IMG/VR virus record: IMGVR_UViG_3300027373_000015
Location: 1-28,624 of that record
Reading direction: 5' to 3' (one strand)
From: a virus
Taxonomy: Duplodnaviria; Caudoviricetes
DNA length: 28,624 bases
The notes below the pieces were generated by a model, which saw only the letters and a program-made list of their open reading frames with translations, was not told the DNA's origin and did no database searches. Both the position numbers and the translations under genes were made by a program. Shown here piece after piece: positions 1-7,077 of this stretch; the first letter of the stretch is position 1; each line of letters opens with the position of its first letter.

Positions 1-2
1 AT

Positions 3-125
3 GCCCTGAAGCTACTGGAAAATATAAAGGCATGGGACATACAACAAGCTGCTGAAAAAGGCACTTACAAACTGGTTTTGCCAACAAGATTAAGAAAAAG
101 AACACAGAAGTTGCTTAGTTTCTAA
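3..125 (+). CDS. C-terminal part of cassette ORF, truncated by window edge (...GTYKLVLPTRLRKRTQKLLSF*)
   Basis: Open frame from position 3 ending in the TAA of the first TAAC core, as for other cassettes. Confidence 0.65.
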   Translation, partial: ALKLLENIKAWDIQQAAEKGTYKLVLPTRLRKRTQKLLSF

Positions 126-245
126 CGAGTAACGAGTTAACTGGCTTGCGTAATTTGAAAATACACAAAGAAAGAAGGTGCTTATATGGGAGAAGCTACT
201 GATGCAACCACGGGCAGCAAGTCCAAGTTGAATGAGCTGTTATGC
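120..245 (-). repeat. attC-like site 1 (126 bp)
   Basis: TTCTAAC...GTTAACTGGCTTGC / GCAAGTCCAAGTTGAAT...GTTATGC; arms pair with three unpaired bases on the right arm. Confidence 0.85.
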
Positions 246-509
246 CCCACTGCTGCCCAGATTAAAGACATGCAGCACATGCTGGGTATGACTGGCAGCG
301 CACCAAAGGGACAATGGGGATACCGAAACCACTATGCTGCTTCACACGGCAACACAAAGGTACTGGAAAGCATGGCGCAACTGGTAGCGATGGGCTTGGT
401 GTCTGAAGGTTCTACCACTATTACCTTGCAATATTTTCATTGCACCCGTGAAGGCTGCAGGGCCGCTGGGTTAAGTAAAGCCGGTATCAAGCGAGTGTTT
501 GGGGCATAA
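186..509 (+). CDS. Cassette ORF, phage-type hypothetical protein (GYRNHY motif)
   Basis: ATG after AAGAAGGT in attC1 loop; stop is TAA of next core; flanks GTTATGCCCC / GGGGCATAAC complementary over 10 bp. Confidence 0.8.
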   Translation: MGEATDATTGSKSKLNELLCPTAAQIKDMQHMLGMTGSAPKGQWGYRNHYAASHGNTKVLESMAQLVAMGLVSEGSTTITLQYFHCTREGCRAAGLSKAGIKRVFGA

Positions 510-626
510 CTTACCGTGATAACCGGATTACGACACGAAGAGTGCATACAGAAAGAAGATACTGATATGGAAACTGGTAAAATTACGCCCAAAGCAAGTA
601 ATTCCGAGTTGATTAAGGCGTTAGGG
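504..626 (-). repeat. attC-like site 2 (123 bp)
   Basis: GCATAAC...GATAACCGGATTAC / GTAATTCCGAGTTGATT...GTTAGGG. Confidence 0.85.
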
Positions 627-833
627 GCGGGTATGGACTACGAAAAACAACAGGACACACTCTCTGCGCTGCAAGAAGCACGCAAATGGGTGCAAGAAGC
701 ACATGACGAGGCAGAGGGAAGACACGATACTTATGGCTTATATTACATGGATGCGTCGCAGTATGAAATAATGCAGGAAACGGAGAGGCTGCTCACACGC
801 ATAGATATGCTGTTACAACATTTAAGCCCCTAA
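567..833 (+). CDS. Cassette ORF, hypothetical protein
   Basis: ATG 567 after purine-rich GAAAGAAGA in attC2 loop (alternative ATG 633); flanks GTTAGGGGC / GCCCCTAAC. Confidence 0.75.
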   Translation: METGKITPKASNSELIKALGAGMDYEKQQDTLSALQEARKWVQEAHDEAEGRHDTYGLYYMDASQYEIMQETERLLTRIDMLLQHLSP

Positions 834-959
834 CGACCCGTGATAACCGGGTTGCGACCAAAGGAGAAAGAAATGGCCCTGAATGGATATGGCAGTGTAG
901 TAGACGATAGTCCCAAAGCTGACACAGTAAGCAACTCCGAGTTGATTAAGGCGTTAAGC
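828..959 (-). repeat. attC-like site 3 (132 bp)
   Basis: CCCTAAC...GATAACCGGGTTGC / GCAACTCCGAGTTGATT...GTTAAGC. Confidence 0.85.
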
Positions 960-1124
960 CCCGAGGACGAGCAAACAAAAGAATGGTTGGCAGAATCAGC
1001 AAGGCGCATGGCTGGTGCGGCAAAAACTTATTTGGAGCTGGAAAAGTACGATTCTGCCGCAATGTGTGCGATGCGCGCCGATGCCCTGCAATGGGCAAGC
1101 CAGTACTTGAAGCGTGGGGCATAA
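873..1124 (+). CDS. Cassette ORF, hypothetical protein (copy 1 of 2)
   Basis: AAGGAG SD then ATG 873 in attC3 loop; no in-frame ATG near the attC end; identical to 2349-2600. Confidence 0.8.
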   Translation: MALNGYGSVVDDSPKADTVSNSELIKALSPEDEQTKEWLAESARRMAGAAKTYLELEKYDSAAMCAMRADALQWASQYLKRGA

Positions 1125-1247
1125 CGTAACAAAGATAACCGGCTTGGGGAATATTACCCAACCAGAAACGGAGATAGAAAGTGACGGACAAGAATACAGC
1201 AAATTCAGAGGAGCATCCCCAAGTCCGAGTTGATTGCGGCGTTAGGT
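1119..1247 (-). repeat. attC-like site 4 (129 bp)
   Basis: GCATAAC...GATAACCGGCTTGGGGA / TCCCCAAGTCCGAGTTGATT...GTTAGGT. Confidence 0.85.
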
Positions 1248-1582
1248 ACATGCCAATGAGCCAAGAAAATATACTAAATATAGCCAGAAAAACACTGGAT
1301 ACAGGGCTTGATTTTGGCCGGACAACTAGAATTACGCGTGCAACAGACAAAGAACTGATTGATTTTGCCAATGCAATAACAGGTACATGGATGCCAATTG
1401 ATACGGCACCTAGAGACGAACGTGTTTTACTCTGGAACGGTACTGGGACGTATTGTGGCCACTGGGCAAAGAGTATTGAAACAGATGATGAAGCCTGGAT
1501 CATAGCTGAGTTTGGAAACGAGGGGGATCAGCTACTGATAAAGGCTACTCACTGGATGCCACTGCCTGCGCCGCCCGTTTAG
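1181..1582 (+). CDS. Cassette ORF, DUF551-like phage protein
   Basis: WMPIDTAPRD...VLLW...THWMPLPAPP signature typical of DUF551-type phage proteins; GGAG then GTG in attC4 loop; flanks GTTAGGTAC / GTACCTAAC. Confidence 0.8.
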   Translation: MTDKNTANSEEHPQVRVDCGVRYMPMSQENILNIARKTLDTGLDFGRTTRITRATDKELIDFANAITGTWMPIDTAPRDERVLLWNGTGTYCGHWAKSIETDDEAWIIAEFGNEGDQLLIKATHWMPLPAPPV

Positions 1583-1583
1583 T

Positions 1584-1705
1584 ACCTAACGATAGAATTA
1601 ACTGGCTTGCGGAGCCGAAGCGAAAGGATAAGACCAATGAGCGACAAAAAAAATGCTGGAAATGCGCCCGAAAATAGCAAGTCCAAGTTGAATGATGCGT
1701 TAGGG
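1584..1705 (-). repeat. attC-like site 5 (122 bp)
   Basis: ACCTAAC...ATTAACTGGCTTGC / GCAAGTCCAAGTTGAAT...GTTAGGG. Confidence 0.85.
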
Positions 1706-1831
1706 GCGCAGGAGGTTTGGGGATATGGTGAAGACAACGATGGGTGGTACGTGAGCTGTAATGATGAACAGATAGCATGGGCGGCATCAGAAATTAATGC
1801 CAAACGCATTGCCGAGCGAATGAATGCCTGA
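1637..1831 (+). CDS. Cassette ORF, small hypothetical protein
   Basis: AAAGGA SD then ATG 1637 in attC5 loop, reads SKLNDAL through the arm. Confidence 0.7.
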   Translation: MSDKKNAGNAPENSKSKLNDALGAQEVWGYGEDNDGWYVSCNDEQIAWAASEINAKRIAERMNA

Positions 1832-1843
1832 ATTACGGTAAGC

Positions 1844-1975
1844 CTCTAACGTAACTAAGATAACCGGCTGGCGATGCCGGAGAGGAGAAGCCAAATGAGC
1901 CTACAAACTAACGACAGAGAAGCCGCTGAAATTGCTGACACGGTAAGACAGTCCGAGTTGATTGAGGCGTTAGGT
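1844..1975 (-). repeat. attC-like site 6 (132 bp)
   Basis: CTCTAAC...GATAACCGGCTG / CAGTCCGAGTTGATT...GTTAGGT. Confidence 0.8.
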
Positions 1976-1999
1976 ACGGAGGGGACTGACCATGAATGA
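1895..1999 (+). CDS. attC-encoded leader peptide (34 aa, MSLQTND...SELIEALGTEGTDHE), not in ORF track
   Basis: GAGGAG SD, ATG 1895, stop in cATGAATGA overlapping the start of the next ORF. Confidence 0.55.
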   Translation: MSLQTNDREAAEIADTVRQSELIEALGTEGTDHE

Positions 2000-2309
2000 C
2001 TTTGTAGCCAGATGCCGAGAATGGCAGGCAAAAAATACTGATTACACTCTGATGTGCGACACCAACGGCACTGACATATTTTATGTGCAGTGGAATGAAC
2101 TGTCAAAATCACACAGAATGGCATGGATTGGTAAATACGGGCGTGCGGCAAAGGATGCATTTGAAGAGTTTGCAATTAAAAAATGCAAAGTGCCGCAATT
2201 TGTATTGACTGCTGACATGCGCTTGCTTCCTGACCCGCTGTACAACTGGCCACACGGTGATGCAATGCTGGTTTTCCAGACCAAGCAAGATGGTGTTCCA
2301 TTGGTCTAA
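1992..2309 (+). CDS. Cassette ORF, hypothetical protein
   Basis: GGAGGGG SD; stop is TAA of next core. Confidence 0.8.
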   Translation: MNDFVARCREWQAKNTDYTLMCDTNGTDIFYVQWNELSKSHRMAWIGKYGRAAKDAFEEFAIKKCKVPQFVLTADMRLLPDPLYNWPHGDAMLVFQTKQDGVPLV

Positions 2310-2435
2310 CGACCCGTGATAACCGGGTTGCGACCAAAGGAGAAAGAAATGGCCCTGAATGGATATGGCAGTGTAGTAGACGATAGTCCCAAAGCTGACA
2401 CAGTAAGCAACTCCGAGTTGATTAAGGCGTTAAGC
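2304..2435 (-). repeat. attC-like site 7 (132 bp; body identical to site 3)
   Basis: GTCTAAC...GTTAAGC; identical to 830-959 from CTAAC onward. Confidence 0.85.
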
Positions 2436-2600
2436 CCCGAGGACGAGCAAACAAAAGAATGGTTGGCAGAATCAGCAAGGCGCATGGCTGGTGCGGCAAA
2501 AACTTATTTGGAGCTGGAAAAGTACGATTCTGCCGCAATGTGTGCGATGCGCGCCGATGCCCTGCAATGGGCAAGCCAGTACTTGAAGCGTGGGGCATAA
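2349..2600 (+). CDS. Cassette ORF, hypothetical protein (copy 2 of 2)
   Basis: Identical to 873-1124. Confidence 0.8.
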   Translation: MALNGYGSVVDDSPKADTVSNSELIKALSPEDEQTKEWLAESARRMAGAAKTYLELEKYDSAAMCAMRADALQWASQYLKRGA

Positions 2601-2722
2601 CGTAACTAAGATAACCGGCTTGGGGAATATTACCCAACCAGAAACGGAGATACCAAGTGACCGACGAGAATACAGAAATTCAGAGCAGCATCCCCAAGTC
2701 CGAGTTGATTGCGGCGTTAGGG
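2595..2722 (-). repeat. attC-like site 8 (128 bp; close relative of site 4)
   Basis: GCATAAC...GATAACCGGCTTGGGGA / TCCCCAAGTCCGAGTTGATT...GTTAGGG. Confidence 0.85.
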
Positions 2723-2752
2723 GTGAAGCCGAGGAGATGTTGCCATGAATAA
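2657..2752 (+). CDS. attC-encoded leader peptide (31 aa, MTDENTEIQSSIPKSELIAALG...CCHE), not in ORF track
   Basis: GGAG then GTG 2657; stop in cATGAATAA overlapping ATG 2745. Confidence 0.5.
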   Translation: MTDENTEIQSSIPKSELIAALGVKPRRCCHE

Positions 2753-2939
2753 ACCCTATTTTGTAATACTTAATTGCAGTAATGGCGGTATTACTCCGCT
2801 GGTTACTGGTGATTTACACGAGGAATTGGCTACGTTTGACTCAGAAGACGAGGCCGCAGAAGCCGCACGAAACAACACGCTTGGTAATTTCTTCGGCTTC
2901 GAGGTTTTTTGTGCTGGCTGCGGCGAACTTAACGGTTGA
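2745..2939 (+). CDS. Cassette ORF, small hypothetical protein
   Basis: GAGGAG SD; flanks GTTAGGGGT / ACCCCTAAC. Confidence 0.75.
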   Translation: MNKPYFVILNCSNGGITPLVTGDLHEELATFDSEDEAAEAARNNTLGNFFGFEVFCAGCGELNG

Positions 2940-2941
2940 AC

Positions 2942-3002
2942 CCCTAACGACCAGAGTTAACCGGCGGGCGTTTAGCCCGTCCGAGTTGAACGAGCGTTAG
3001 AG
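2942..3002 (-). repeat. attC-like site 9 (61 bp, classical short 59-be-like form)
   Basis: Minus strand reads CTCTAAC GCTC GTTCAACTCGGACGGGC TAAAC GCCCGCCGGTTAAC TCTGGTC GTTAGGG, matching canonical attC top-strand layout. Confidence 0.9.
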
Positions 3003-3018
3003 GCTGAAAGGACAAAAC

Positions 3019-3249
3019 ATGCAAAACGTTGAATACCAACCATATATGCCGAGTTGCGGAACTGAGATGATGCAATTTTACGCCAATTTCTGCGACCAAT
3101 GCGCTGACCCTGACGAGGTTTTGTGGAGCGAAAAACAGGAAGGCTCTGGATGCAAGTTTATCATTGAGGCCACTGCGGAAAGCAAACAGCCTGAACCGTG
3201 GGTGATAAAAGACGGCTGCGCTTGCTGCCTAAATTTCAGAAGACTCTAA
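3019..3249 (+). CDS. Cassette ORF, Cys-rich hypothetical protein (possible metal binding)
   Basis: Own AAAGGA SD; CDQC and CACC motifs; stop is TAA of next core. Confidence 0.75.
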   Translation: MQNVEYQPYMPSCGTEMMQFYANFCDQCADPDEVLWSEKQEGSGCKFIIEATAESKQPEPWVIKDGCACCLNFRRL

Positions 3250-3367
3250 CGAAAACGAGATAACTGGCTTGCGACAAGAAGCAACCGGACAGGAAAGAGG
3301 AACTGATATGGAAAACGTAACAAACAAGGATGAGGTAAGCAAGTCCGAGTTGATTGAGCCGTTAGAG
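3244..3367 (-). repeat. attC-like site 10 (124 bp)
   Basis: CTCTAAC...GATAACTGGCTTGC / GCAAGTCCGAGTTGATT...GTTAGAG. Confidence 0.85.
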
Positions 3368-3736
3368 GCCCGAAATGCAATACAGCCTCTTTACACCGAC
3401 GAACACGGCACACTGAGGTTTAAGGGCAATGCCATTGTGAAATACCTGCTGGATAATGGAGGCATAAACCTTAACGACCTTGCCCGTATTGAGTTTAGCC
3501 AAGATGACCAGCAACACTTTGCCCAACTGATAGGCTACAGCCTGAGTGGATATGGCGACCTAAGCTACGTTGATGATGCCAGCTACGAGGCCGCTGCAAC
3601 TATGGCTGAGGATGGTCTGGACGAGAAAGACGCGCGGATTGCCACGCTGACACAGAAGCTGAATGCTCTTAAAGCAGCATTGCAGTTGCCGCTGGCAGAG
3701 TTGTTTGGTGTGCATCCCGACGACCTTAGCCTCTAA
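3308..3736 (+). CDS. Cassette ORF, phage-type hypothetical protein (RFKGNAIV...FAQLIGYSLSGY)
   Basis: AAAGAGGA SD then ATG 3308 in attC10 loop; flanks GTTAGAGGC / GCCTCTAAC. Confidence 0.8.
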   Translation: MENVTNKDEVSKSELIEPLEARNAIQPLYTDEHGTLRFKGNAIVKYLLDNGGINLNDLARIEFSQDDQQHFAQLIGYSLSGYGDLSYVDDASYEAAATMAEDGLDEKDARIATLTQKLNALKAALQLPLAELFGVHPDDLSL

Positions 3737-3750
3737 CGAGTATTAGACCC
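3731..3750 (-). other. Putative attI-like simple site closing the array
   Basis: CTCTAAC core not followed by an attC hairpin but by a short inverted box (TCTAA cgagta TTAGA), then AT-rich DNA. Confidence 0.45.
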
Positions 3751-3775
3751 CCTAATTTTTACCAAATACGACACA

Positions 3776-3805
3776 TTGACCACATAACCGATAATACAGT
3801 ATAAA
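3776..3805 (+). promoter_or_regulatory. Possible sigma70 promoter
   Basis: TTGACC-18 nt-TATAAA upstream of ORF 3827. Confidence 0.35.
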
Positions 3806-3826
3806 AAACGACAAAAAGGCCGTCAC

Positions 3827-4093
3827 ATGATCCACATCACCACCCTCATAACCCTGCAGTCTAAACACGACAGGGCCTGTTCAAAACACGACTGGACCGG
3901 ATACACCCTGGCAGACATGAACGCTGCAGCAGCCGGTGAGCAATTAGAGATCACCCAGGCCGAGGGACGCGGACAGATCCACGGCCCCCATGGCGTCATT
4001 GATGAAACCTATGACCTGATCGCCGTACTACTGCGCAAGGTAGAAGCGCTGGAAGGGACGCCCCATGCAAGCAATCAGAACCCTACTGCTTGA
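3827..4093 (+). CDS. Hypothetical phage protein
   Basis: 88-aa ORF after putative promoter; DETYDLIAV weakly recalls all-alpha NTP pyrophosphatases. Confidence 0.6.
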   Translation: MIHITTLITLQSKHDRACSKHDWTGYTLADMNAAAAGEQLEITQAEGRGQIHGPHGVIDETYDLIAVLLRKVEALEGTPHASNQNPTA

Positions 4094-4238
4094 CCCCCGC
4101 GTCTTCAGCTACCTAATTATGGGGCTCTACCTGCTCAACGCCCTGCGCTGGGCCTATGAACGTAAACCGGCTAATGTCTGCTACTGGCTCTCAGCCCTGG
4201 CAATCACCGCAACCGTAACCTTTGGGTATAAACACTAA
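4065..4238 (+). CDS. Small membrane protein (57 aa, MQAIRTLLLDPRVFSYLIMGLYLLNALRWAY...), not in ORF track
   Basis: GGAAGGGA SD, two hydrophobic stretches, TAATG overlap with next gene. Confidence 0.65.
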   Translation: MQAIRTLLLDPRVFSYLIMGLYLLNALRWAYERKPANVCYWLSALAITATVTFGYKH

Positions 4239-7032: not shown

Positions 7033-7077
7033 GAAAAAGTCGAAAAAGTCGAAAAAGTCGAAAAAGTCGAAAAGGCC
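7033..7077 (+). repeat. Tandem 9-bp repeat GAAAAAGTC x4 plus one variant
   Basis: Directly visible in intergenic gap. Confidence 0.95.

Follow-up and report, generated by a model that had tools for sequence, protein, structure and literature searches.

A Phage attC Array with Genes on the attC Bottom Strand and Loop Starts That Likely Initiate Translation

The window described in this article is the whole 28,624-nt (28.6-kb) tailed-phage record IMGVR_UViG_3300027373_000015, whose completeness is estimated at 36%. Its first 3765 bases contain short ORFs (open reading frames) in a row on the + strand with ten related repeats between them, and from position 4238 onward the same strand encodes packaging, head, and tail functions of lambda-like type, with genes for the terminase large subunit, portal, protease-capsid, and tape measure. 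This leading region is probably a phage cassette array of the integron type in which the genes are located on the bottom strand of their attC recombination sites, a Shine–Dalgarno (SD) sequence and start codon in the attC loop likely initiate translation, and a host integrase acting in trans likely moves the units. That the site would thereby double as a translation-start module is well supported, both statistically and by homologues. As judged from sequence, the layout is real, is encountered again in numerous uncultivated phages, is general within the sampled attC family, and represents a variant of the integron design.

Architecture and orientation of the array

The attC-type array spans positions 120 to 3765 and consists of ten attC sites within 3.3 kb, followed by a closing attI-like site (Table 1). 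The preliminary description had confined it to 165..3367, which lies within the element but understates its extent. The right-arm motif is matched nine times in the window and not once in 100 shuffles. Both cores, TAAC and GTTA, are invariant in the nine distinct sites, and the ends of a cassette are complementary at 8 to 10 of 10 bases in nine of the ten units. Including the cores, the sites are 61 to 132 bp long (attC range 57–141 bp); in constrained folds, the central spacer is unpaired and the terminal structure variable. The nine long sites are not independent of each other: those at 831 and 2307 are identical, those at 1122 and 2598 are 93% alike, and the unit 830–1129 is a perfect duplicate of 2306–2605, with the duplication beginning at the left core. 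Ten attC sites on the same strand, spaced by less than 4 kb and with no integrase nearby on a contig that is incomplete upstream, correspond to a CALIN (cluster of attC sites lacking integron integrases). An Rfam scan of positions 1–4000 gave no match, nor did a distant blastn comparison of 120–3740 with 50,697 GenBank phage records. A promoter and terminator scan returned 5 and 6 matches, with 4.8 and 4.9 expected by chance.

The bottom strand of attC is characterized by the extrahelical bases G16 and T23/24 and an optional base 20, with 6 bp from first to last (PMC5027507; here and below, papers are cited for portions of their content). In the window, the right arm of the + strand contains the unpaired bases G16, A20, and T24 without variation. 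From these bulges, together with the geometry of host arrays described below, it follows that the bottom strand of attC is the one carrying the phage genes; every cargo ORF is found on the + strand, as opposed to the usual (though not strict) layout of complete integrons, with cassette genes on the top strand and a promoter next to attI from which they are read. With the genes on this strand, the A/C cut of AAC would fall at the left end of each site, and a cassette would comprise the site, its loop, and the following gene. The canonical reading, a gene with its downstream site, is rejected for most units on the basis of bulge position, host geometry, and breakpoints.

Because unconstrained folding of the long sites often missed the attC form, constrained folding was used, with the measure taken from PMC5371416. 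The predicted probability of the recombinogenic fold is 0.6 to 0.85 in four sites and 0.0003 to 0.052 in five, compared with 0.22 to 0.79 in host repeats.

Loop-encoded starts in the window

Each of the nine long sites contains a start codon in its loop, exactly where the preliminary description had placed it (Table 1). A purine-rich, SD-like stretch had been given for all nine; eight have an SD-like word (at least 4 nt, spacing of 4–13 nt), but 567 is preceded by a purine run only. Seven of the starts enter the cargo gene in frame and would provide it with the N-terminal tags that had been named, with 1181 using the VRVDCGVR frame. The remaining two, 1895 (34 aa) and 2657 (31 aa), cross the right arm and stop at 1999 and 2752; these stops overlap the cargo ATGs at 1992 and 2745, each of which has an SD of its own. 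The sole short site (2942–3002, 61 bp) has, as stated before, no loop start, and its gene at 3019 is served by its own SD. In eight of the 11 ORFs, the stop codon is indeed the TAA of a core; the last such core belongs to attI rather than to an attC. With translation starting in the loop, only about 40 to 65 bases past the previous stop would stay untranslated.

Several cargo genes had further been described as devoid of a start of their own past the site. This holds for 186, 873, 1637, 2349, and 3308, but not for 567 and 1181, where alternative ATGs are found at +10 and +6, respectively. For the others, the first in-frame start past the site is an ATG at +28 without SD (186), a TTG at +31 (873 and 2349), a GTG at +49 (1637), and a GTG at +73 (3308). 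In 2000 shuffles of the loops, eight of nine sites with SD and start were reached four times, and eight read-throughs or six long fusions never. The idea that the ribosome-binding site (RBS) is displayed in the hairpin loop is borne out in five of the eight distinct long sites, where RNA folding predicts it to be more open than the arms, but not in the others.

Among sites related to 1119–1247 and 2595–2722 (runs X4 and X6), a single inserted base is found repeatedly at one and the same position of the loop. By such insertions, the loop start switches between the two open frames of the arm.

The cargo proteins bear on where translation begins. The protein starting at 3308 has 1298 homologues; among the 120 listed, 91 start at most seven residues from a conserved PIQP motif, 22 have longer N termini, and seven lack the motif. 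The copy in the window has no in-frame start past the site until V44, which is preceded by the invariant residues Q26, P27, R37, F38, N41, and I43. Likewise, the 186 protein aligns with its homologues from just past the tag. Against Pfam, DUF551 is the only family above cut-off in the cargo, and NCBIfam gave no match for five cargo or flanking proteins.

Table 1. Features of the array. Strands of recombination sites refer to the canonical top strand; aa, amino acids.
Feature	Position	Strand	Remarks
Cargo ORF, 3' end	3..125	+	truncated by contig start; stop on TAA of site 1 left core
attC site 1	120..245	-	canonical top strand -, bottom strand +; loop start 186
Loop-started ORF, 107 aa	186..509	+	tag ends SKLNELL; weak PHROG 13561 match; stop on core TAA
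attC site 2	504..626	-	loop start 567, weak SD; lowest predicted folding probability (0.0003)
Loop-started ORF, 88 aa	567..833	+	SELIKAL tag; alternative ATG 10 nt past site
attC site 3	828..959	-	loop start 873, strong SD
Loop-started ORF, 83 aa	873..1124	+	SELIKAL tag; within duplicated unit 830-1129
attC site 4	1119..1247	-	loop GTG 1181; one base longer than twin site 8, start in other open frame
Loop-started ORF, 133 aa	1181..1582	+	VRVDCGVR tag; C-terminal DUF551; alternative ATG 1250
attC site 5	1584..1705	-	loop start 1637
Loop-started ORF, 64 aa	1637..1831	+	SKLNDAL tag
attC site 6, 126 bp	1844..1975	-	loop start 1895; Trichlorobacter thiogenes-like
Loop-started leader, 34 aa	1895..1999	+	stop overlaps cargo ATG 1992; predicted translational coupling
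Cargo ORF, 105 aa	1992..2309	+	own SD; stop on core TAA
attC site 7	2304..2435	-	identical to site 3; loop start 2349
Loop-started ORF	2349..2600	+	duplicate of 873-1124
attC site 8	2595..2722	-	loop GTG 2657
Loop-started leader, 31 aa	2657..2752	+	stop overlaps cargo ATG 2745
Cargo ORF, 64 aa	2745..2939	+	own SD; 70% identical homologue in L620 array
attC site 9, short, 61 bp	2942..3002	-	no loop start
Cargo ORF, 76 aa	3019..3249	+	own SD; PHROG 6074; stop on core TAA
attC site 10	3244..3367	-	loop start 3308
Loop-started ORF, 142 aa	3308..3736	+	SELIEPL tag; stop on attI core
attI-like site	3731..3765	-	closes array; 24/32 bases identical to T. thiogenes/Geobacter site between array and intI

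Loop starts and gene reversal in other phages

Five viral scans, one genome scan, and one metagenome scan yielded 995 sites, 919 after de-duplication. The site detector gives no false match in 2.2 Mb of shuffled viral DNA; its search patterns derive from one attC family, so that the rates below apply to this family and not to phages at large. Orientation was scored with amino-acid frequencies and called strictly. Viral sites are mostly reversed where a call is possible (147 reversed, 12 canonical, 155 ambiguous, 14 too short), as opposed to the sites in genomes (6 reversed, 102 canonical, 199 ambiguous, 12 too short) and metagenomes (7, 70, 169, and 18, respectively).

The long viral set consists of 178 sites of 75–135 nt from 123 loci, excluding the window, and was compared with 200 composition-matched shuffles. 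An SD with ATG or GTG is present in the loop of 117 of the 178 sites (shuffle mean 41.4, maximum 58), and in 97 the frame runs at least 30 aa past the site (shuffles 10.7, maximum 20). After similar loops are collapsed, 70 of 138 remain, versus 8.3 in shuffles. The 117 starts are distributed over the three frames as 63, 48, and 6, the rare frame being the one closed by a TGA in the arm; 105 are ATG and 12 GTG, with an SD spacing of mostly 5–9 nt. By contrast, the 299 genome sites show no excess, neither of SD plus start (128 versus 137.8 shuffled) nor of long read-through (17 versus 15.0). Short viral sites are rarely fused to the gene (2 of 133), and 107 of the 130 without a loop start are followed by a gene start with its own SD; thus, the single short-site case of the window becomes the rule.

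At the first match in locus L012, a lone right arm follows an SD and ATG and is fused to a gene, with no left arm present. It is possibly a decayed site that has retained only its start module.

Unit boundaries

Among 26 pairs of viral loci that have the downstream gene in common but differ in the DNA upstream, the site is kept in 19 (11 of 15 groups), and in 18 of these 19 the identity begins 0–3 nt before the core. In eight viral pairs with the same upstream gene, the site differs in six. Contigs of other runs match single units of the window, with breaks at 504–510, 1126, and 2304. The same cargo also occurs with different loop tags, and the same loop before different cargo. Each cassette had been described as a self-contained start-to-stop unit. 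It applies only by virtue of the reversed orientation of the genes with respect to attC, which that description did not mention; in the canonical arrangement, the loop would form part of the upstream cassette. Nor is the unit absolute, as tags and cargo are re-paired. These swaps of start modules probably stem from exchange within the right arm that the sites share, brought about by homologous recombination or by an off-axis reaction of the integrase.

Two RNA-labelled runs (X14 and X16) were considered as evidence of transcription and set aside, their shares being small, in the form of contigs, and mostly covering the sites.

Kinship with chromosomal integrons

The same repeat family is present in chromosomal arrays (at least 177 stretches in the genome scan). 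In all five genomes with this family that were tested, an integron integrase scores above the TIGR02249 cut-off. Where intI adjoins the array, it is found downstream of it on the strand of the search pattern, and the cassette genes are on the other strand. Site 6 of the window is identical to 16 T. thiogenes repeats at 89 to 97 of 126 bases without gaps. In 14 of these 16 repeats, a TGA interrupts the reading frame left open by the phage site, and none of the 16 has the SD and ATG of the phage site at that place. Descent would run from host repeats to the phage.

The attI-like sequence at 3731–3765 matches the T. thiogenes and Geobacter site at 24 of 32 bases, with 23 as the best of 200 shuffled queries, and is also found in six other viral loci. 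Short ORFs and then the packaging genes follow it in the window. Beside it, no integron integrase is encoded, and PF00589 is not matched on the whole contig, which is 36% complete. Among 386 overlapping viral loci, ten contigs encode an integron-integrase homologue (L420, L610, L370, L326, L337, L343, L403, L388, L524, and L341), eight of them at full length. All seven full-length enzymes tested pass the TIGR02249 cut-off and are located downstream of co-oriented cassette genes. In the seven layouts that could be read, the cassette genes and then intI share a strand, and five of them have an attI-like core immediately ahead of intI.

Further observations concern host-type attI sites and shared cassettes. 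The assembly graph of run X1 branches at position 127, from a depth of 1365 into site 1 (659) and a 24-nt continuation (767), the latter being identical to the T. thiogenes attI; the reversed cassette ending at 125 may also sit beside a host-type attI. The attI-proximal cassette of a T. thiogenes locus (L358:749–985) contains a 78-aa ORF with SD on the bottom strand in phage style; a rival reading is a 103-aa ORF starting with TTG on the opposite strand. A cassette of about 240 bp without clear ORF, found in L050, L189, and L192, has many copies in Trichlorobacter-type chromosomal arrays. The GenBank virus Rctr41k carries an integron-integrase-like gene among co-oriented small genes, with no attC detected within 4.6 kb.

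Comparison with known systems

Clusters of attC in phages are already published (PMC9892861), as are short ORFs within attC (PMC8876359, PMC11511950). The phage CALINs of Qi et al. 2023 (PMC9892861) likewise consist of attC runs between small phage genes with no adjacent integrase, and five of six phage attC sites tested there recombined with attI1. The text covered of that article, figures excluded, does not describe systematic gene reversal, loop starts, or N-terminal tags; its phage TJE1 has two short sites with the bottom strand opposite the genes, which is canonical. The window differs from these CALINs in its long sites, its reversed genes, and an array closed by attI. Related to it are the sedentary chromosomal integrons of T. 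thiogenes, Geobacter metagenome-assembled genomes, and Holophaga, which share its attC family, attI motif, and attC–attI geometry; however, their genes are on the top strand, their loops show no excess of SD plus start, and intI is adjacent.

Tailed phages, such as the cluster K mycobacteriophages, contain start-associated repeats or boundary sequences, in which a repeat bearing an RBS precedes small accessory genes. These are not known to be attC hairpins or to involve an integrase-type crossover.

In class 1 integrons, short ORFs in attC and ORF-11 in attI1 represent ORFs in a recombination site that aid the next gene by coupling, similar to the leaders 1895 and 2657 (PMC8876359, PMC11511950). 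They belong to the upstream cassette or the platform, are on the top strand, and are termed anecdotal in the portions cited. In the phage array, by contrast, the start travels with the gene, mostly as an in-frame fusion, and in over half of the long sites sampled. The literature searched, with most subscription papers outside it, yielded no description of a systematic reversal, of starts encoded in the loop, or of proteins with such tags; the supplement of PMC9892861 was searched for three phage names only, and its figures lie outside this negative on reversal. PMC4889954 and bioRxiv 2026.03.17.712381, as far as covered, add nothing on phages.

Proposed mechanism and alternative explanations

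According to the proposed mechanism, the folded + strand would be cleaved inside the left AAC, between its A and C, giving a cassette of site, loop start, and gene up to TAA. New cassettes would enter at attI, at the far end of a rightward phage transcript. The long loops, which the integrase does not read, may have drifted from purine-rich host repeats to translation-start regions, yielding N-terminal extensions of 10–30 residues or coupled leaders; the short sites would leave the gene to its own SD. The gain would be a compact, gap-poor translation of the array, with expression independent of the neighbour, and a second, rarer exchange in the shared right arm would swap start modules among genes. 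The simplest reason for the loop starts is the geometry itself: a reversed gene has attC at its 5' side, and the loop is unread by the integrase and already purine-rich (PMC5027507); a start in the loop also leaves few untranslated bases. In class 1 arrays, expression further downstream was lower with untranslated stretches, whereas removing attC seldom lowered it (PMC11511950).

Several results weigh against this interpretation. About half of all sites are ambiguous in orientation. The contig encodes no tyrosine recombinase, so that the acting enzyme is a presumed one, and poor folding is predicted for four of the eight distinct long sites (0.0003–0.05 or near). RNA folding does not make the RBS regions at 186, 2657, and 3308 clearly more open than the arms. 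Breaks at, within, or after the right arm occur in seven of the 26 same-gene pairs and in two of the eight same-upstream pairs (including 1122 versus 2598 of the window). On close homologues of the 3308 protein, at least seven further loop tags are found, among them that of site 1, and in other runs different genes follow sites 1 and 2, which also argues against a strict unit. Moreover, SD-like words with a start are common by chance in purine-rich chromosomal loops, and chromosomal loop starts cross the arm in 81 cases versus 52.9 shuffled.

The SD-like words with a start in 128 of 299 chromosomal loops, together with the purine-rich nature of attC bottom strands (PMC5027507), the missing good SD at 567, and the nearby ATGs of 567 and 1181, would suit the view that loop starts are by-products of purine-rich strands and open arm frames, with the real starts downstream and the ORFs merely extended by callers. 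We regard this as highly improbable, given the excess of long read-throughs over composition-matched shuffles, the preference for ATG, the peak in SD spacing, and the avoided closed frame, all of which are confined to viral sites, the conserved residues of the 3308 and 186 cargo preceding any downstream start, and the host in-frame TGA that is absent from the phage copy. The lack of an integrase on the contig, the right-arm breakpoints with tag swapping, and the weak predicted folding of several sites could instead indicate that attC-derived sites with start signals now act only as homology linkers, at whose 20–30 nt arms phage recombinases shuffle genes with no integron integrase involved. 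However, most shared units begin 0–3 nt from the left AAC, where there is little homology, the complementary cassette ends, the G/A/T bulges, and attI are all kept, and related phage arrays encode integron integrases beside an attI-like site; such linkers are thus quite unlikely.

A further explanation concerns the selective cause of the loop starts, which may mainly counteract the blocking of ribosomes by the attC RNA hairpin. Downstream translation is reported to be impeded by attC stem-loops, an effect relieved by short ORFs within attC (PMC8876359), and phage sites, at −19 to −29 kcal/mol, are less stable as RNA than the five host repeats compared, at −32 to −42 kcal/mol. It was the preliminary description that proposed this bypass of the hairpin barrier, for which the case is weak: the barrier was described for canonically oriented cassettes, and in a 2024 study removal of attC altered downstream expression in a minority of the cassettes tested (PMC11511950). 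Furthermore, short and stable phage sites without loop starts use a downstream SD. As the main selective force, the barrier is therefore unlikely, if somewhat less so than the linkers. The reading of a bottom-strand cassette array with loop starts remains the probable one.

Neighbouring and unrelated features

Between the terminase and portal regions of the window, positions 7033–7077 contain 9-nt tandem repeats in four to five copies. Near a reversed array between terminase and portal in another locus (L350:2504–5467), a reverse-transcriptase-like ORF is accompanied by an Avd-like gene next to it and by two similar genes upstream, which we take to suggest a diversity-generating retroelement.

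Implications

The integron is regarded as a bacterial device whose genes lie upstream of their attC. A reversed phage version, in some cases with its own integrase, would represent a programmed source of mosaicism for the accessory region of phages and would connect the cassette pools of phage and host. In it, a 120-bp sequence would have three tasks, namely those of a folded DNA substrate, a ribosome-binding site, and a protein N terminus, which constitutes a testable overlapping constraint. Two predictions arise: tools that pair a gene with the downstream attC should mis-delimit phage cassettes, and many unrelated phage proteins should have common attC-encoded N-terminal tags.

The finding also bears on how cassettes are made. 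Tentatively, and with less than even confidence, a mirror-image integron may be widespread in temperate phages, in which attC acts as the start module, integrase moves the whole unit at the left core, and re-pairing occurs at the right arm, so that any fragment of a phage gene that comes to lie behind an attC acquires an RBS and start and turns into a cassette. If true, the creation of cassettes would have a visible route, and units would be exchanged between the arrays of phages and the chromosomal integrons of hosts.

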